Virus record (IMG/VR): IMGVR_UViG_3300031622_000002 | Location: 1 to 48,898 of that record | Length of the DNA: 48,898 nucleotides | Source: a virus | Strand: one strand, 5' to 3' | Shown here: positions 2,668 to 48,898 of the stretch, one piece after another | Layout of the letters: each line of letters opens with the position of its first letter | How positions within the stretch are numbered: the stretch's first letter is position 1 | Position numbers and translations under genes: made by a program | Notes under the pieces: generated by a model | What the model saw: the letters and a program-made list of their open reading frames with translations, nothing else | Databases searched by the model: none | Told to the model about the DNA's origin: nothing

Positions 2668-2674
2668 GTACTCT

Positions 2675-2702
2675 ATTATACTGCGATCTGAGCATTTGTC
2701 AA
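2675..2702 (-). promoter_or_regulatory. Consensus sigma70 promoter for the late (terminase/structural) arm
   Basis: The minus strand reads TTGACA (2702..2697), a 16-nt spacer, then TATAAT (2680..2675). Only 7 nt (agagtac) separate the -10 from the ATG at 2667. Confidence 0.75.
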
Positions 2703-2743
2703 GCTTTATTTTGCATTTAGTTAAAATAAATGTAAGAAATAAC

Positions 2744-2772
2744 TTGACAAAATGCCAATATCGCAGTATAAT
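2744..2772 (+). promoter_or_regulatory. Perfect consensus sigma70 promoter facing the early arm
   Basis: TTGACA (2744..2749), a 17-nt spacer, then TATAAT (2767..2772). It shares ATCGCAGTATAATAGA and CTTGACAAA with the opposing promoter. Confidence 0.8.
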
Positions 2773-2846
2773 AGATATTAAGCCCTCGGGGTTATATAGC
2801 CTATATCGCCCCTACTACCTACCTTGTCTACATCCCCCTTTTTAGT

Positions 2847-2895
2847 AGAAAGAAAAAAGAAAAGAAAGAAACTTCCCTTTTGTTTCCTCCCCTCT
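2847..2895 (+). repeat. 25-nt pure purine tract followed by a pyrimidine-rich tract
   Basis: agaaagaaaaaagaaaagaaagaaa (2847..2871) is followed immediately by cttcccttttgtttcctcccctct (2872..2895). Confidence 0.85.
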
Positions 2896-3150
2896 GTAGA
2901 GTCTTTGAAGCCCCGCCGCTATCTGGTATACAACTCAATTAGCCTGTAAAATGTATAGCATTGTGTATATATAGGGGGGAGGGGCCATGGCGACCTGCCC
3001 CGCCTCTAAAGTCTCTACAGTCTCCAAAGCCCTACCACAAAAAACCTCTACAGTCTACAAAGTCTTTGAAGTCTATGCGACTATTCAGTCATAAAAGACT
3101 CTTGCTATCTAGTTGCCAATCCTGTAGAGACTTTAGAGACTGTAGAGACT
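2892..3150. repeat. Cluster of phased short repeats (CTGTAGAG/CTCTACAG, CTCTAAAG/CTTTAGAG; AGTCT/AGACT at 9-nt period) in both orientations
   Basis: CTGTAGAG at 2894, 3122 and 3140; its complement CTCTACAG at 3013 and 3046. AGTCT at 3010/3019 and 3052/3061/3070; AGACT at 3128/3137/3146, each series exactly 9 nt apart. AGTCTTTGAAG at 2900 and 3061. Inverted 17-mer ctctaaagtctctacag (3004..3020) versus ctgtagagactttagag (3122..3138). Confidence 0.9.
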
Positions 3151-3525
3151 AATAGCTTTAAACTATACAGTCCCAACAATTTCAATAGTTTAACTATATA
3201 TCAACCACCACCACAAATAAATAACCTAGAACACTTGACAAACTAAAAAATCTCTGAAACTGATCAGTTTTTAACCAATAAAACTATTGGCACAACCACT
3301 GACATATCCGATCTAAGCTATCTCTAAAGCTCTCTAATCTATTTAAGTTAAACCTATACCGTATGCTATCCAACGCGTAAACCTGTTAGGCGTTAAAATA
3401 CGCGGCTTCTCGACGGTTTCACAATCTTAAAAAACTGCCCAAAAACTACCCGAAAAAAATTGGTGTATAAAAGGTCATAAGACTTTTGATGTTTTTCAGC
3501 GTAAAAATTAATTTACTTGGAAGTG

Positions 3526-3555
3526 TTGTACTCTGTTTTAAAATAGTGTTATGAT
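3526..3555 (+). promoter_or_regulatory. Possible sigma70 promoter (extended -10) in front of the first early gene
   Basis: gtgTTGTAC (3526..3531), an 18-nt spacer, then TGtTATGAT (-10 at 3550..3555). It shares the gtgTTG prefix with the promoters at 6855 and 8791. Confidence 0.4.
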
Positions 3556-3630
3556 CCTGCCAATGGCGAGAAAACGAGAAATTAAACTGTAAATAAGAAT
3601 CATTATCATTAACCAAAAGGAATACAGACA

Positions 3631-3828
3631 ATGCAAAATTTTAAAGCCTTAATTAAATTGGAAGCGATGTTTAAAAACTTATCAGCCTTACGAGATACCC
3701 AAGATTATTATATTGAAACTACCGATGATTGCGATGATGTTATGGATGCAATTATGACAAGGGATGAATTGAACGCTTGTTTACTTGAAATTAAAGAAAT
3801 AAAAACCTTAATATTTGTGGAGAAATAG
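3631..3828 (+). CDS. Hypothetical small acidic early protein (first early gene)
   Basis: 65 aa. AAGGA upstream of the ATG. Contains an acidic patch ETTDDCDDVMDAIMTRDE. Confidence 0.55.
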   Translation: MQNFKALIKLEAMFKNLSALRDTQDYYIETTDDCDDVMDAIMTRDELNACLLEIKEIKTLIFVEK

Positions 3829-4115: not shown

Positions 4116-4337
4116 ATGATTATGAAAGCTATCAAACTGAAAGACGTGAAATTGGGCGACTATGTACGCCGTAAGCCTGACTCATTAAAAACATTCACTC
4201 GCGGTGGTTACATACGCGATTTAAACTGGAACACTGGCAAGCCTTACAACCAATATGCGCTTGAAGATACGGACGACATTTGTCGCGAGATATATCTGAA
4301 AGGTTCGACCGTTGTCTATATTGATTTTGAATTTTAA
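4116..4337 (+). CDS. Hypothetical early protein
   Basis: 73 aa (MIMKAIKLKDVKLGDYVRRKP...VVYIDFEF). An alternative ATG lies at 4122. The pattern recalls a small uncharacterised phage/plasmid protein family. Confidence 0.5.
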   Translation: MIMKAIKLKDVKLGDYVRRKPDSLKTFTRGGYIRDLNWNTGKPYNQYALEDTDDICREIYLKGSTVVYIDFEF

Positions 4338-6854: not shown

Positions 6855-6883
6855 TTGACAACAGAAGAGATTTGTGGTACAAT
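6855..6883 (+). promoter_or_regulatory. Sigma70 promoter with extended -10
   Basis: gtgTTGACAac (-35 at 6855..6860), a 17-nt spacer, then TGgTACAAT (-10 at 6878..6883). Sits in a 188-bp gap upstream of 6921. Confidence 0.7.
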
Positions 6884-8790: not shown

Positions 8791-8819
8791 TTGACAACAA
8801 TTAACAATCGTGGTATACT
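8791..8819 (+). promoter_or_regulatory. Sigma70 promoter with extended -10 (replication module)
   Basis: gtgTTGACAac (-35 at 8791..8796), a 17-nt spacer, then TGgTATACT (-10 at 8814..8819). Same flanks as the promoter at 6855. Confidence 0.7.
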
Positions 8820-9522: not shown

Positions 9523-11208
9523 ATGCCTTTTGTACTGCATAAGCAACCATGTACTTTATGCGGAGGGAGCGACCCAGTATCGGTTAACGATAACGGTACT
9601 GGGTGGTGCTTCACTTGCGTTAAAGCAATACCAAACTACAGCACATCGGAAGTGCAACTAACTGATACCGTAACGGACTTTGGAGTGTATCAAAGGAACA
9701 GCAAGATGGAAGACCTATCAACAGGAGCGACAGATCATGGCGCAACATTCAATGCGCTAACTGACCGCAAGATAAGCAGAGACACCGCCAAGAAGTATGG
9801 CGTTAAATCCACCACCATCAACGGCAACATCGACAAGCATTACTACCCTTACTACAACGGCCACGAGTTCTCATGCAACAAGGTACGCCTACAAAACAAA
9901 GACTTTGCGTGGACAAGTTCCCCAAAAGAAGTAGGTTTGTTTGGTGAGAATCTCTTCAAGGCAGGTGGTAAGTTTATAACCTTGACCGAAGGCGAGTGCG
10001 ATGCGATGTCCGCTTATGAACTTATGGGTAGCAAGTGGCCTGTAGTTTCTATCAGGTCTGGTGCGGCAGGAGGTGTCGGAGATGTTAAGAAAAGTCTTGA
10101 GTACTTGGAAAGCTATGAAAATATTATCATCAATATGGACAACGACAAGCACGGTAAAGAAGCGGCACTCCTAATTGCTAAGCTTCTGACTCCGGGAAAA
10201 GCTAAGATAATGACAATGCCTGTAGACTTTAAAGACGCTAACGATATGTTACGTCAAGGCAAGCATAGCACATACGTCAGTGCTTTCTGGGATGCTAAAG
10301 TCTATACACCTTCAGGGGTTTTGAATCTCTCTGATCAGTTTGAAGCGTATCAGAAACTACGTACAGAAAAGAAAACAGCTATCCCTTATCCTTGGGGCGG
10401 CCTCAATACTAAGCTAGAAGGCATGAGAGCAGGTGAACTGATAACACTTACTGGTGGCACAGGTCTAGGTAAGTCCTCTGTTACTCGTGAGATTGAACAC
10501 TGGTTGATCAACAACACGGAAGATAACGTAGGTGTCATAGCCCTTGAGGAGAACTGGGGGCGTACTGCGGAAGGCATCATGGCTGTAGAGGCTAACGCTA
10601 AGCTACACCTTGATAGTGTTAAGGCAACGTACACCGACGAGCAGATGGATGGGTTCTATAAGAAAGTCTTTATGGGTGACAACGACGGGCGTGTATGGAT
10701 ACACAGTCACCACGGTATCACTAACATCGACGAAATCTTTAGCAAGCTACGCTACATGATCATCGGCCTAGATTGTAAATGGATTGTGCTAGATCACTTA
10801 CACATGCTAGTGCTGAGTGCGCTTGAGAACGACGAGCGTAAATCAATCGACAGTATCATGCATCGGTTACGCACTATGGTAGAGGAGACAGGGTGTGGTA
10901 TGGTTCTAGTCTCTCACTTACGTAGAGTGGACGGCAACACCGGACATGAGAACGGAATTGAAACAGGACTAAATCATCTCCGTGGGTCACAAAGTATTGC
11001 TCAGTTATCAGACTGCGTGATTTCTTTAGAGCGTAATCAACAGAGTGATGATGCTATTGAAGCCTCGACCACTAAGGTCAGAGTGTTGAAGTCTCGCTAC
11101 ACTGGCAACACTGGTGTCGCTTGTAGTCTACTGTACGATGATTGTACTGGTAGGCTGAGAGAGCTAGACGCTTACGATGAGTCGCAGTTCAACGGAGATA
11201 TTATATGA
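9523..11208 (+). CDS. Bifunctional DNA primase/helicase (T7 gp4-like)
   Basis: 561 aa. Zn finger CTLCGGS..CFTC, TOPRIM motifs TEGECDAMS and NMDNDKHG, helicase Walker A GGTGLGKSS and Walker B WIVLDHL. Confidence 0.92.
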   Translation: MPFVLHKQPCTLCGGSDPVSVNDNGTGWCFTCVKAIPNYSTSEVQLTDTVTDFGVYQRNSKMEDLSTGATDHGATFNALTDRKISRDTAKKYGVKSTTINGNIDKHYYPYYNGHEFSCNKVRLQNKDFAWTSSPKEVGLFGENLFKAGGKFITLTEGECDAMSAYELMGSKWPVVSIRSGAAGGVGDVKKSLEYLESYENIIINMDNDKHGKEAALLIAKLLTPGKAKIMTMPVDFKDANDMLRQGKHSTYVSAFWDAKVYTPSGVLNLSDQFEAYQKLRTEKKTAIPYPWGGLNTKLEGMRAGELITLTGGTGLGKSSVTREIEHWLINNTEDNVGVIALEENWGRTAEGIMAVEANAKLHLDSVKATYTDEQMDGFYKKVFMGDNDGRVWIHSHHGITNIDEIFSKLRYMIIGLDCKWIVLDHLHMLVLSALENDERKSIDSIMHRLRTMVEETGCGMVLVSHLRRVDGNTGHENGIETGLNHLRGSQSIAQLSDCVISLERNQQSDDAIEASTTKVRVLKSRYTGNTGVACSLLYDDCTGRLRELDAYDESQFNGDII

Positions 11209-43859: not shown

Positions 43860-44711
43860 TTAATCTACTATTCTGCCTTCTATTATGGCTTGGTCAATAT
43901 CACTTTCGTATTTATCAAATTGGGCCATAGACAGTTTAGCGATTTCCCGTTGTGACCAAATCTTTGGTTCTTTAGCATCTATTTGTGTTGTCCGTGTGGA
44001 CACCATATCTGCCGCTGAAGATTTGGGGGCTTGTGATTTCTTTGCCTTCTGCTTACTTCCAATCTTAATACCATTTTCCATCTTATAAAGATCAATAGCT
44101 TTGATAGCTAATGAAACATTATTTGGGTTTTCGTAAATCCAACCTTGAATTGCTTCAGGTTGTTCCTTAGCCCATTCGTGAAACTTATCATCTCCGCGTA
44201 TATCCTCAAAATCAGGATGTCTAGAACGCAATGTAGACTCTGCTTCTTTACGTTGGATGTTCAGTTCTCGTTCTTCAAGAACAGTCATCTTAGTTTTTAA
44301 AGCTTGTAGCTGTTGTTCGCTTTGTAAGTGTGCAACAGTTTCTACAGTTTCATATAGATCAGGGTACTGCTCTCTAAAGTTTTCAAGTTCTTCAGTGGTC
44401 TTAGGCGGGGCATACGCATGTTGCGTCTCTTGTGCCATCGCGGTAAGCTCTAATTCTTTTTGCTTAAAAGATGCTATCTTCTGATCGTAGTGTTTCTTTA
44501 GATCGTCGTATCGTTTTTTATAATTAGTTCTTCCTTTAGAAGTTGGCTCTTCTTGTTCAGGGGCCGCTTCGCGGGTAGCCTGTGGAGAGTCTTCTTCAAA
44601 GAAAAGCGCATCTGCTTTACCTCTACTTGGGGCATCTGGTGTGTGCCAAGCCTTCTTAGAGTTATACGGATTCGCAGTTGGTTCTTCAATTTGTTCATTA
44701 GCAGTTGACAT
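43860..44711 (-). CDS. Scaffolding protein
   Basis: 283 aa from ATG 44711 (AGGAG 10 nt upstream; the track's GTG at 44720 is too close to the SD). Highly charged and helical. Lies upstream of the capsid gene, as in T7 gene 9. Confidence 0.55.
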   Translation of the reverse strand: MSTANEQIEEPTANPYNSKKAWHTPDAPSRGKADALFFEEDSPQATREAAPEQEEPTSKGRTNYKKRYDDLKKHYDQKIASFKQKELELTAMAQETQHAYAPPKTTEELENFREQYPDLYETVETVAHLQSEQQLQALKTKMTVLEERELNIQRKEAESTLRSRHPDFEDIRGDDKFHEWAKEQPEAIQGWIYENPNNVSLAIKAIDLYKMENGIKIGSKQKAKKSQAPKSSAADMVSTRTTQIDAKEPKIWSQREIAKLSMAQFDKYESDIDQAIIEGRIVD

Positions 44712-44844: not shown

Positions 44845-46260
44845 TTATCCCTTGTTAGTGCTTGGCATTCTATCTGCGTTTACCATCCTTGATCGAACAA
44901 GAGAAGCTTCTTCTTCTTCTTCAATTTCGGGTGCGTCATCGCTAGTTAGTCCTCCAAACGCTTTCTTCATTAAACCACCGTCATAGGCTTTTTCAGCTTC
45001 GTCCATCATAGTTTGTAGCTGATCAGCGCCCATTTGATCGGTAGCCTTCTTGGTGAAAACAAATTCACCATCCGATAACCTTGCGGGAATCGAATCTGAT
45101 ACTCCAGTGCCAAGGCCAGATACTTCGCCTTCACCGGAAAACTCTCCTGCAACATCCATAACCTTATCAAAGATGCCGCTTAGACGTTCGTCAGTTTCTA
45201 GAACGCCCATTAAATATTCTTGTTCTTCCATGTCTAAAGACTCTTCTAGTACATAACTAGTATAGTCCTCTTCCATCTCATCGTCTGGAAGCTGTGAAGC
45301 TTCTGCCGCTTCTTTCTCATCTTCAGGGATGTTGTCGTATGTGTCCACTGGCATCTCGTCTTCCATTTCCATTTCAGGTGGAACGAGCATAGAGCCTCCT
45401 TCAGCCTTTTTAGTTTTTGTATATGTTACATCAGAGTTATTCTCAGCGGCTAAAGCAACTTTAACAGGGTATGTTTTTCCCTCGTCATCTGTAAACTCAA
45501 AAACATCTAAGCCTTCTTTTTGTGCAGACGCAAATTCTTTTTGAAATCTATTTTGCGTGGGCTTAGTAAGCTTATCGTAAGCTTCCTTCCCGCCAAACGC
45601 AGTTATGGCCCCTGCTATCCCTGCTTTCATTTGTCCTTTTTTATAGGTTTTAGTAGCTTTCATAGGTGCTGAAGTCATAGCTATGCTTTCAGTATCACCA
45701 CGTAAAAGACTTGTAAACATTGAATCTATATCACGAGGGCCGCCACCGCCAACACCATAATTTTCCACGTATCTTAAATCTTTTACTTCTTGTATATCGT
45801 CAGCTATTTCTTTTTCAAGGTTGGGATTTTCTTTTTTAACATCGTCTACAGCTTTTTGTATTTTAGCCCTAGTTGGTTTTTTACCAGACTTGGTTGTTTT
45901 ACCAAGAGCTTTTGCAACTAAAGAAAATACTCTACCACCTACACTATACTCTTCACGCTCAGGAGAACTTAACATAGAGCCGCCAGACATTTTTCCTTGT
46001 CTTTGATTTTCTTTAAATCTTTTGTCAGCTTCATCTAAATCACGATCCATTTTGTCTTGATCTAACTTTCGCTGATGGTCTTCGGCTTCTTCATCTGACA
46101 TAAACATATCAGGATCAAGTTCTTCTTCAAGCTCATCAACTGTCGTATTTTTAGCTTTAACTAGCTTACCGTCAGAATACTTCGCTCTGCCGCCATACAT
46201 CTTGCCTTGTCTTTCTTCCATTTGCATTCTGTAGCGTTTGTCATCCATAGATTCTTTCAT
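44845..46260 (-). CDS. Acidic 471-aa protein between portal and scaffold, function unknown
   Basis: GAGGA RBS. Recurring GKMYGG / GKMSGG / AEGGSM / AFGG motifs. IPARLSDGEFVFTKKAT motif near the C-terminus. Confidence 0.7.
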   Translation of the reverse strand: MKESMDDKRYRMQMEERQGKMYGGRAKYSDGKLVKAKNTTVDELEEELDPDMFMSDEEAEDHQRKLDQDKMDRDLDEADKRFKENQRQGKMSGGSMLSSPEREEYSVGGRVFSLVAKALGKTTKSGKKPTRAKIQKAVDDVKKENPNLEKEIADDIQEVKDLRYVENYGVGGGGPRDIDSMFTSLLRGDTESIAMTSAPMKATKTYKKGQMKAGIAGAITAFGGKEAYDKLTKPTQNRFQKEFASAQKEGLDVFEFTDDEGKTYPVKVALAAENNSDVTYTKTKKAEGGSMLVPPEMEMEDEMPVDTYDNIPEDEKEAAEASQLPDDEMEEDYTSYVLEESLDMEEQEYLMGVLETDERLSGIFDKVMDVAGEFSGEGEVSGLGTGVSDSIPARLSDGEFVFTKKATDQMGADQLQTMMDEAEKAYDGGLMKKAFGGLTSDDAPEIEEEEEASLVRSRMVNADRMPSTNKG

Positions 46261-48556: not shown

Positions 48557-48898
48557 TTATAGAGCTTGGAACTGAACGATGTACTTAACAGTTGTAGCCG
48601 CTGTAGCTAGGTCTGCTCCGATTGGAGTTAGTCGAGCGTGTAGAGTACGGTCAGCGGCACTGTATAAAGTGCTTGCAATTACAATAGCCTCTGAAGTAGC
48701 GGGGCCGCCTACAACACCTGCGGTTACTGAAGTGCTTACAAAAGCGTTAGCTCCGTGGCCGTGAGAATCTTTAATAAGATACAAAGGAGCTTTAGCCGCC
48801 CAAGTTACAGCAGAACCACCGTCATCTAGGATAGCTTCAGTAGCGATAATCTGTCCACCACCTGCGGCTGTTCCTAAACTAAAGTCTACGTCATTACC
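48557..48898 (-). CDS. 3' part of the wrap-around 191-aa protein (48772..48898 duplicates 1..127)
   Basis: The frame is open to the window end. ...AKAPLYLIKDSHGHGANAFVSTSVTAGVVGGPATSEAIVIASTLYSAADRTLHARLTPIGADLATAATTVKYIVQFQAL, with the stop at 48557. Confidence 0.7.
   Translation of the reverse strand, partial: GNDVDFSLGTAAGGGQIIATEAILDDGGSAVTWAAKAPLYLIKDSHGHGANAFVSTSVTAGVVGGPATSEAIVIASTLYSAADRTLHARLTPIGADLATAATTVKYIVQFQAL
48772..48898. repeat. Exact duplicate of 1..127
   Basis: See the first feature. Confidence 0.95.

Follow-up and report, generated by a model that had tools for sequence, protein, structure and literature searches.

A conserved non-coding hub beside the small terminase gene of a marine podophage, a candidate region of packaging recognition

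The non-coding hub at positions 2668–3630 of the window (the whole 48,898-nt stretch of viral DNA analysed here, IMG/VR record IMGVR_UViG_3300031622_000002) is, on comparative evidence, a genuine control region, conserved in evolution, of an abundant marine phage. The hub lies directly upstream of the small terminase gene terS and contains a block of ∼115 nt (2894–3008) whose conservation extends to more than 50 distinct relatives from metagenomes and to the pelagiphages HTVC103P and HTVC115P. The hub most likely marks a place of packaging recognition and cutting, because the DNA ends of related phages sit in an equivalent hub; we place about even confidence in the reading that it is a cis-acting chromosome junction at which replicated DNA would be recognized and cut for packaging. 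Phages of the HTVC103P and HMO-2011 types rank among the most abundant viruses of the surface ocean (PMC9038755; bioRxiv 10.1101/2019.12.14.876532), and a term search of these two reports returned no mention of promoters, intergenic regions or genome-end determination.

Genome layout and terminases

The source is a marine podophage of the HTVC103P/HMO-2011 type, assembled as a circle of 48.8 kb (k = 127), with a T7-like replication module and a portal and capsid of podovirus type. Its large and small terminases (TerL and TerS) are 66% and 57% identical, respectively, to their counterparts in Pelagibacter phage HTVC115P. The early/replication and structural arms are convergent, as in LUZ24. The hub is the single long gene-free stretch, as the preliminary description held, since the gaps at 8.1–8.9 and 18.6–19.5 kb hold small same-strand ORFs. 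Its statement that the hub contains no convincing ORF also stands: reading frames are not conserved among relatives, in which the hub ORFs carry indels that are not multiples of three and ACG, CTG or GTG stands in place of the ATG of a 35-aa ORF, and the relatives' alignment contains no conserved protein-coding frame in either the hub or the block. No tRNA genes were found in the hub, and its DNA has no match among 50,697 phage records. Hub sequence flanking the block is not alignable among relatives, and in HMO-2011 extra genes lie upstream of terS, so that no equivalent hub is present there. Outside the block and its repeat arrays, the main features are as follows.

2269–2667, − strand: terS, small terminase with an N-terminal helix-turn-helix (phrog_2538), candidate binder of hub elements
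2675–2702, − strand: P(−), perfect σ70 consensus promoter (TTGACA, 16 nt, TATAAT; 12 of 12 matches)
2744–2772, + strand: P(+), perfect σ70 consensus promoter (TTGACA, 17 nt, TATAAT; promoter scan), kept in relatives
2781–2793, + strand: conserved small hairpin AGCCC-loop-GGGTT where the P(+) transcript is predicted to begin (alignments)
2800–2893, no strand assigned: variable spacer including the 25-nt purine tract 2847–2871, replaced by unrelated inserts in many relatives
3170–3630, no strand assigned: poorly conserved part of the hub (alignments, promoter scan, Tandem Repeats Finder)

The first gene beside the hub encodes a small terminase of the PaP3/NV1/LUZ24 family, with weak homology: phmmer relates it to the TerS proteins of NV1 (7joq, E = 4.5e-5) and PaP3 (6w7t, E = 0.0084), and BLASTP to LUZ24 gp68 (3e-7) and phiM6 gene 1 (3e-17). 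TerL belongs to the Pfam family Terminase_6N and is 46% identical to the TerL of MQM1 and, in the nuclease half, 22% identical to that of LUZ24; no relative of solved structure was found for it. Because the TerL clade includes PhageTerm calls of both 'pac' (phiM6) and 'DTR' (MQM1) and its wider relatives are mixed, TerL does not predict the type of genome end.

Promoters and leader

P(−) and P(+) stand back-to-back at 2675–2772, an arrangement that is absent from the preliminary description. The spacing of P(−) is identical in 23 of 33 aligned relatives. The terS ATG (2667) lies 7 nt past its −10 hexamer and the terS mRNA is therefore predicted to be leaderless. P(+) is aimed into the repeats, toward the early genes, and is the sole strong promoter that faces them. 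The stem of the hairpin that follows it is kept by two-sided changes in relatives (ACCG/CGGT in L054, GCC/GGC in L061 and L064). From 3170 onward, where conservation is poor, the hub has an 11-nt A-tract repeat at 3430–3456 and a weak promoter-like site at 3517–3544 (TTGGAA, 16 nt, TAAAAT) ahead of the first early gene (3631).

The conserved block

The block runs from a unit pair through a GC box, an AT-rich segment, a G-run and a core to a second GC box, with arrays of further units on both flanks.

2894–2910, + strand: left unit pair CTGTAGAG-T-CTTTGAAG (family CTTTAAAG-T-CTTTAAAG), the best conserved pair (relatives' consensus)
2910–2921, + strand: left GC box GCCCCGCCGCTA (direct-repeat analysis)
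2921–2973, no strand assigned: AT-rich segment ATCTGGTATACA, 13–15 variable nt, AAAATGTATA..ATTGTGTATATATA (consensus of 53 distinct sequences)
2974–2986, no strand assigned: G-run GGGGGGAGGGGCC (relatives' alignment)
2987–2999, no strand assigned: near-invariant core ATGGCGACCTGCC, with TGG...CCTGCC kept in essentially all relatives
2997–3008, + strand: right GC box GCCCCGCCTCTA, which repeats the left box directly at a distance of 87 nt

Each of 73 IMG/VR loci (53 distinct sequences) contains the block once. It also occurs in additional divergent viral contigs, among which a loose pattern scan gave 26 true matches and mostly false ones, and in at least 120 marine metagenome contigs, which were scanned with a specific block pattern. 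An nhmmer profile places it at the same position and in the same orientation in HTVC103P (E = 2.8e-5) and HTVC115P (E = 0.0098). Judged from these alignments, the block is under strong purifying selection. The profile gave no match in the phiM6, LUZ24, PaP3, MQM1 or RHph_N3_13 loci searched, and a by-eye resemblance of the block to sequence beside the phiM6 pac site is consequently unsupported.

In 40 of 47 relatives a pentamer marks the left unit pair at −87 relative to the core. The AT-rich segment carries the motif TGTATA three times, and a C-run replaces the G-run in about eight of 53 relatives. The genome has just two copies of GCCCCGCC[G/T]CTA, 87 nt apart at 2910 and 2997, a pairing that resembles the boundary sequences of the LUZ24 and T7 terminal repeats. 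The purine tract (2847–2871) and the G/C island (2974–3006) recorded in the preliminary description are seen directly in the sequence. CcrM (GANTC) and CtrA sites and a σ70 promoter within the block were weighed from the sequence and did not fit.

Repeat units and their phasing

The units are tandem, degenerate 8-bp palindromes of consensus CTTTAAAG with a one-base separator, and the logo derived from 323 sites in 45 relatives reads CTttaaAG-T-CTttaaAG. Beyond the left unit pair they are arranged as follows.

3004–3029, + strand: array A, CTCTAAAG-T-CTCTACAG-T-CTCCAAAG, period 9
3046–3072, + strand: array B, CTCTACAG-T-CTACAAAG-T-CTTTGAAG-T-CT, period 9
3096–3150, − strand: lone AGACT (3096), CTATCTAGTTGCCA (second CTATCTGGTATACA copy) and array C
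within 3096–3150, − strand: array C, CTGTAGAG-A-CTTTAGAG-A-CTGTAGAG-A-CT, period 9, spacer base A

The 9-nt phasing of the repeats far exceeds chance. Five of the six same-orientation pentamer pairs in the genome that are exactly 9 nt apart are located at 3010–3146, compared with a mean of 0.18 and a maximum of two in first-order Markov simulations, and ten pentamers fall in 260 nt (simulated mean 4.3, maximum 8). Tandem Repeats Finder reports period-9 arrays at 3004–3029 and 3122–3150. The phasing extends to relatives, in which spacings of 9 nt (65 cases) and 10 nt (28 cases) dominate. The hub contains 19.8 units per kb and the coding flank 4.3, and tandem unit pairs with 9-nt spacing are nearly exclusive to the hub within the window (seven of nine).

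Several repeats had been listed in the preliminary description. The 8-mer said to occur five times is present as CTGTAGAG at 2894, 3122 and 3140 and as CTCTACAG at 3013 and 3046, which make up five of the seven copies in the whole window; CTCTAAAG is found at 3004 and, one base from the 3323 given earlier, at 3322, and CTTTAGAG at 3131. The 9-nt 'trios' of AGTCT (3052/3061/3070) and AGACT (3128/3137/3146) are also real, and are unit-to-unit junctions, since the units are tandem palindromes one base apart; their opposite orientation is not a conserved feature, unit orientation varying among relatives. Additional AGTCT copies are located at 2900, 3010 and 3019 and an additional AGACT at 3096. 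The 17-nt perfect inverted repeat (3004–3020/3122–3138) is likewise present here and not conserved in relatives. Selection on an inverted repeat of 17–20 nt was considered and rejected, as across 54 relatives the best inverted repeat matches the best direct one in length (14.9 versus 14.9 nt).

Genome ends in related phages

LUZ24 and PaP3 resemble the window in having a homologous TerS, convergent arms with terS first in the structural arm, and a long non-coding hub with host-type σ70 promoters facing both ways, G/C-rich runs and tandem arrays of short palindromes (in their case CTTAAG, period 11). They differ in that TerL is only remotely related, the block profile has no match in the loci searched, and their hubs carry tRNA genes and have the arrays beside promoters, 0.4–1.4 kb from the ends. 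In LUZ24 the terminal repeats of 184 bp (repeat_regions 1–184 and 45442–45625) lie 0.86 kb upstream of terS (44122–44580), with σ70 promoters on both sides, and the GC-rich 12-mer GGGGAATATCCC occurs only twice in the genome, at both inner boundaries of the direct terminal repeats (DTRs). The layout proposed in the preliminary description, with a linear genome transcribed inward from both ends, is exactly that of LUZ24. The PaP3 record opens with the 20-nt cos sequence, 1.98 kb from terS (at 1979), and PaP3 TerS binds cos in vitro (PMC7672466). PhageTerm assigns a pac site to position 1 of phiM6, 600 nt upstream of the terS homologue at 601 (PMC6256558), and a 327-bp DTR to MQM1 (PMC10410586); the MQM1 record is not ordered by this DTR, which makes its end position unusable for comparison.

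The likeness to the repeat blocks of T7 termini suggested earlier is apt. T7 has 11 copies of CTAAAG in its first 340 nt, with CTAAAG arrays in and beside the terminal repeat, mostly in 13-nt steps, and CCTAAAG arrays that flank the repeat; short-repeat arrays similarly flank the putative repeat between the GC boxes of the block. The T7 terminal-repeat boundaries share TATCTnnnACAGT, a G/C palindrome lies inside the repeat and the outward promoter phiOR precedes the right repeat. The window has T7-like replication genes, but unlike T7 its terminase genes are at the start rather than the end of the late arm and its units are 8-bp palindromes with a strict period of 9–10 nt. The proteins scanned, a set that excluded the 1692-aa and 1772-aa ORFs, yielded no phage RNA polymerase. 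The short-repeat arrays of T7 are not known to have an established function.

Short repeats on either side of a conserved core adjoining the terminase genes are also a feature of pac and cos sites with repeated terminase-binding elements, such as the R sites of λ cosB, the hexamers of P1 pac and pacL/pacR of SPP1. The window is not known to have sequence or protein homology to these systems, and its units are far shorter than the λ R sites. A λ-type cos, with a Nu1 small terminase and 16-bp R sites, was rejected, as TerS matches those of PaP3 and NV1 rather than Nu1 and the units are 8 bp. The 8-mer GGCGACCT, common to the window and the λ cos end, is presumably a coincidence.

Packaging recognition and the genome terminus

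In the reading that we favor, the helix-turn-helix-bearing TerS of PaP3/LUZ24 type would bind the units, the block or both, and would place the large terminase for cleavage at the G/C core or close to it. The ends of virion DNA would then lie in the hub and, as in LUZ24, transcription of the linear genome would run inward from either end. Two types of end may be envisaged: short direct terminal repeats, for example of ∼87 bp between the GC boxes, by analogy with the 184-bp LUZ24 repeat bracketed by GGGGAATATCCC, or a pac site from which headful packaging starts toward terS, as PhageTerm suggests for phiM6. P(+), reading across the junction, may serve early transcription, replication priming or both, as phiOR does in T7. 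We regard as improbable a more specific version in which the 115-nt block would be a compact, portable packaging signal common to HTVC103P/HMO-2011-like podophages, combining a DTR of ∼87 bp with cut sites at the GC boxes, arrays that serve as a wrapping track for a nonameric TerS (9-bp period) and a P(+) that couples early transcription or replication priming to concatemer processing.

The preliminary description had left the choice between an origin, a pac site and a terminus; the comparative evidence partly bears out the packaging or terminus option, with no terminus located. Contig ends are scattered, with no pile-up, in 80 TerS-anchored IMG/VR loci and 120 metagenome loci, the viral contigs of the loose pattern scan gave no pile-up either, and most assemblies, including the circular one of the window, run through the hub. 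Contigs that stop inside the hub do so at many different places, which speaks against a terminus, as does the direct repeat of the GC boxes, which are less alike in divergent relatives and form a weaker repeat in the most divergent ones. Fixed ends between P(+) and the early genes would uncouple the two on infecting DNA, unless the site at 3517–3544 serves instead.

Alternative roles of the hub

The palindromic units could instead be operators for a phage or host protein that controls or roadblocks P(+) transcription into the early arm and perhaps times P(−), a role that we consider unlikely but that accounts for several observations. Palindromes suit dimeric regulators, the arrays are 120–370 nt downstream of the sole consensus promoter facing the early genes, and the hub motif CTAGTTnACA recurs within the P(−) spacer of HTVC115P and HTVC103P. 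In LUZ24, CTTAAG is found just downstream of four annotated σ70 promoters (4834, 30312, 44882 and 45080), including an 11-nt-phased trio that PaP3 shares; that these palindromic arrays stand beside promoters rather than ends favors a transcriptional role for arrays. The units of the window, however, do not overlap P(+) or P(−) and show no association with its other promoters (6855, 8791 and 14353). No helix-turn-helix regulator was found among the neighboring early genes, which vary between relatives while the arrays persist, and operators would leave the strongly conserved AT-rich segment, G-run and core unexplained.

An origin of the T7 primary type, in which host RNA polymerase starting from P(+) would open the AT-rich block and the primase-helicase would load on the displaced strand and prime at the units, appears somewhat less probable still. 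It agrees with the succession of a consensus promoter and a conserved AT-rich segment, and with the presence of a T7-like DNA polymerase, a gp2.5-like single-stranded DNA-binding protein and a gp4-like primase-helicase with a Cys4 zinc-binding domain (Cys10, Cys13, Cys29 and Cys32). Each unit contains 5′-GTC-3′ (in AGTCT), the recognition triplet of T7 primase, and units on the + strand, which P(+) transcription would displace, prevail from 2900 to 3070, with − strand units prevailing beyond 3096. The T7 promoters phiOL and phiOR, which are annotated near the genome ends, are also secondary origins. By eye, TGTGTATAT resembles a DnaA box (8 of 9 positions of TGTGNAWAA). Orientation should matter for priming, yet it varies among relatives, and GTC or GAC is contained in about 9% of random pentamers. 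The residue equivalent to His33 of T7 gp4, which is linked to recognition of the cryptic C, is threonine in the window primase, making GTC specificity only putative. The change in sign of GC skew at the hub is confounded by gene orientation. The iterons proposed in the preliminary description were not borne out: iteron origins share with the hub clustered short direct repeats adjoining an AT-rich segment, but iterons are usually 17–22 bp and in or beside an initiator gene, whereas the units are 8–9-bp palindromes and no initiator family was found in the neighboring genes scanned.

Finally, a functional non-coding RNA, a long structured P(+) leader or a small protein (e.g. from ORF 2987–3094) is very improbable. 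In its favor, P(+) must transcribe the region, compensatory changes preserve the small hairpin at the 5′ end, and base pairing between the arrays of the window can form a long hairpin. Against it, RNAalifold gives no conserved secondary structure for the block in either orientation (−4.9 and 0 kcal on the two strands), relatives favor inverted repeats no more than direct ones, Rfam gives nothing at the gathering threshold (permissive searches give sub-threshold miRNA-like matches on the promoter palindrome), no intrinsic terminator was found in the hub and the ORFs are broken in relatives by frame-shifting indels and start-codon loss. With no conserved RNA fold, Rfam match or ORF, the block is therefore taken to be a DNA-level element. 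An attP site was also rejected, because no integrase family was found among the proteins scanned (all but some small ORFs and the two largest proteins).

Implications

The block beside terS offers a concrete spot at which to seek ends or a pac site in virome reads, and 2890–3150 is a defined substrate for terminase-binding work. How a nonameric TerS reads a repeated site is an open question in terminase biology (PMC7672466); if the block is a packaging signal, it would show how a TerS of the PaP3 type does so. The block also provides a marker for orienting metagenomic genomes of the HTVC103P/HMO-2011 group.

Genome organization

Positions 1-127 of the window are identical to 48772-48898 (k = 127 overlap), which marks the assembly as circular, with a length of about 48,771 bp; as its break lies away from the hub, the hub itself is bridged by reads. 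The hub (2668-3630) had been described as the only long gene-free stretch, which is borne out across the window. It is the point at which two arms diverge, to converge again near 18.6 kb, the same two-arm layout as in Pseudomonas phage LUZ24. On the (+) arm, which begins at 3631, small early genes are accompanied by replication genes of T7-like type (gp2.5-like SSB, primase-helicase, DNA polymerase, Cas4-type exonuclease, endonuclease and ribonucleotide reductase). The (-) arm encodes the lysis, tail, internal-virion, capsid and portal proteins together with the terminase subunits:

386-2065, - strand: TerL, 66% identity to Pelagibacter phage HTVC115P
2269-2667, - strand: TerS, 57% identity to Pelagibacter phage HTVC115P

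Relationship is more remote to HMO-2011-type roseophages, Sinorhizobium phage phiM6 and Aeromonas phage MQM1. No integrase and no phage RNA polymerase were found among the window proteins scanned.

Repeat units

The repeat observation is real and significant. All of the repeats listed in the preliminary description were found, with one coordinate off by one (3322, not 3323), and Tandem Repeats Finder gives period-9 arrays at 3004-3029 and 3122-3150. Five of the six AGTCT/AGACT pairs spaced exactly 9 nt apart genome-wide lie within 3010-3146 (simulated mean 0.18), and the pentamers number 10 in 260 nt (simulated mean 4.3, maximum 8). The logo of 323 sites in 45 non-redundant relatives, CTttaaAG-T-CTttaaAG, identifies the unit as a degenerate 8-bp palindrome, CTTTAAAG, with a one-base spacer, which accounts for the 9-nt period; window versions include CTCTACAG, CTCTAAAG and CTTTGAAG. 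The AGTCT/AGACT trios, described as oppositely oriented, are present and phased at 9 nt but are merely unit junctions, their 'orientation' being set by the spacer base and the asymmetric inner positions of the units. In the relatives, units mostly stand 9 nt (65 cases) or 10 nt (28 cases) apart, at a density of 19.8 per kb for the hub versus 4.3 per kb for the coding flank; in the window, seven of nine tandem unit pairs fall in the hub. The reported inverted repeat (17-20 nt in the window) exists but is not a selected feature, the best inverted and best direct repeats having equal mean lengths of 14.9 nt in 54 relatives. An 11-nt A-tract repeat (AAAAACTGCCC AAAAACTACCC GAAAAAAA, 3430-3456) that the variable portion of the hub shares with relative L049 may represent bent DNA.

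A conserved block within the hub

Among 80 IMG/VR loci retrieved via TerS (80-100% identity), DNA similarity to the window is kept from terS through the promoters, is absent at 2800-2890, reappears over about 2891-3030, in many cases reaching about 3170, and is gone at 3170-3630. A block of ~115 nt is common to 53 distinct sequences, with the following elements in order.

Elements of the block (consensus of 53 sequences)
1: unit pair, CTTTAAAG-T-CTTTAAAG
2: GC box, CCCCGCCGCT or CTGCCGCGCT
3: A(T/A)CTGGTATACA
4: 13-15 variable nt
5: CAAAATGTATAACATTGTGTATATATAG
6: G-run (C-run in about 8 of 53 sequences)
7: near-invariant core ATGGCGACCTGCC, continuing into the second GC box

The unit arrays keep constant distances from the core, at -87 (40 of 47 relatives) and then at +20 to +40, +60 to +110 and +130 to +190. 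The GC-box pair, GCCCCGCC[G/T]CTA, occurs in the window only at 2910 and 2997, and the outer side of each box abuts unit arrays. Where the G-run GGGGGGAGGGG (window 2974-2984) is replaced by the C-run CCCACACCCCCC at the same position (L018, L019, L057, L063, L068, L075 and L078), the run has swapped strands and the neighbouring core is unaltered.

The block is found in at least 120 marine metagenome contigs, and its profile also hits HTVC115P (E = 0.0098) and HTVC103P (E = 2.8e-5), each time within the hub and with unchanged position and orientation. It is also present in more divergent viral contigs, where the arrays have drifted, e.g. to CTCCAAAGAT or GGGTCTAAAG units. No conserved RNA fold was found on either strand of the block, nor an Rfam match, nor a conserved reading frame in the 53 distinct sequences; it is thus a strongly constrained element at the DNA level.

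Several variants were observed. Metagenome contig Ga0209502_10002178 (L212, 12526-12740) carries two diverged tandem copies of the block 163 nt apart. The HTVC103P hub has a 'unit plus GC box' motif, ATCTTTGnAGCTGGGnCGA, at 667-687 and 1009-1029 in direct orientation, 342 nt apart, and three copies of CTAGTTnACA, one within the terS promoter spacer; HTVC115P likewise has three copies of CTAGTTnACA, at 4249, 4426 and 4633, again with one in the spacer of the terS promoter. In the divergent relative L305, a metagenome contig, GGGTCTAAAG / GGGTCTATAG units with a 10-11-nt period form an extended array left of the block that strongly resembles the T7 CCTAAAG arrays.

Promoters

The region contains only two perfect sigma-70 consensus promoters, arranged back to back:

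2680-2675, - strand: -10 hexamer of P(-), with the terS ATG (2667) 7 nt beyond
2744-2772, + strand: P(+), directed into the block and arrays

No Shine-Dalgarno sequence precedes the terS start (2667-2680, - strand), and with the ATG so close to the hexamer a leaderless terS mRNA is predicted. This spacing is identical in 23 of 33 relatives, the remainder having a 20-45-nt insert. The P(+) transcript would start with a small hairpin (2781-2793, AGCCC-UCG-GGGUU), maintained by compensatory changes in L054 (ACCG/CGGT) and in L061 and L064 (GCC/GGC). No intrinsic terminator was found in the hub, and only a weak promoter-like site (3517-3544) lies ahead of the first early gene. Further into the (+) arm, strong promoter-like sites before the DUF932 gene (6855-6883) and the SSB gene (8791-8819) have a common -35 context, GTGTTGACAAC, each carry an extended -10 (TGGTACAAT, TGGTATACT), and are probably middle promoters.

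Function of the hub

The preliminary description proposed an origin, a pac site or a genome terminus. That range was reasonable; of the three, the terminus/pac option has the best support, through synteny with characterised relatives, and the hub is a candidate packaging or terminus region. The window TerS, with a typical N-terminal helix-turn-helix, is remotely homologous to the nonameric TerS proteins of PaP3, NV1 and LUZ24, and is 35% identical to phiM6 gene 1, also a TerS. PaP3 TerS binds its own cos sequence (PMC7672466). In LUZ24, PaP3 and phiM6 alike, the ends lie upstream of terS in the counterpart of this hub: the annotated terminal repeats of LUZ24 are 184 bp long and have inward-facing sigma-70 promoters on both sides, the cos 20-mer of PaP3 is the record start, 1.98 kb ahead of terS, and position 1 of phiM6 is its authors' PhageTerm pac site (PMC6256558), 600 nt ahead of terS inside a 2.5-kb non-coding hub. 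MQM1, in one TerL clade with the window, has a PhageTerm DTR of 327 bp (PMC10410586), and TerL was not predictive of end type.

The LUZ24 12-mer GGGGAATATCCC, absent elsewhere in that genome, brackets the terminal repeat, and the GC-box pair of the window is analogous. The two copies of the 12-mer (LUZ24 178 and 45432) span both inner boundaries of the 184-bp repeats, and terminase may cut at this motif. G/C-rich ends with short-repeat arrays are a known style of such packaging junctions; T7 has 11 CTAAAG in its first 340 nt, around a 160-bp repeat.

Some observations speak against this reading. No physical end was seen among the contig ends in the hubs of the IMG/VR and metagenome loci: stops occur at many places, often within arrays, a pattern that breaks of the assembly at repeats and in variable DNA would produce, and most contigs cross the hub. 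Fixed ends between P(+) and the early genes would leave these genes reliant on weak promoters on infecting DNA.

A transcriptional role of the units is a serious rival to the packaging reading, since the comparable palindromic arrays of LUZ24 and PaP3 (CTTAAG, period 11) adjoin sigma-70 promoters and not ends. TCTTAAG(A) motifs stand immediately downstream of four annotated LUZ24 promoters, and an 11-nt-phased trio between its two right-end promoters recurs in PaP3:

LUZ24, 44859-45068, 4866/4933 and 30240/30300: TCTTAAG(A) motifs
PaP3, 1394-1605: TCTTAAG(A) motifs

The hub may also be a T7-type origin, in which units containing GTC would act as primase sites alongside a promoter and AT-rich DNA. 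The phage encodes a gp4-like primase-helicase (9523-11208) with a Cys4 zinc-binding domain (C10, C13, C29, C32), but unit orientation is not conserved and a Thr replaces T7 His33, so that the template specificity may differ from GTC.

Other hubs vary in content. LUZ24 and PaP3 hubs contain tRNA clusters (3082-3400 in locus L087 and 1628-1954 in PaP3) and relative L285 has a tRNA-like sequence, whereas no tRNA genes are present in the window. Rhizobiophages phiM6 and RHph_N3_13 have non-coding hubs of about 2.5-2.7 kb from terS to the early arm, with many short CTTCAAGT-type repeats in phiM6.

Notable and new are the nature of the units as 8-bp palindromes, the conservation throughout a very abundant group of marine phages of a ~115-nt block, its bracketing by two genome-unique GC boxes, the pair of back-to-back consensus promoters next to it, and the predicted leaderless mRNA of terS.
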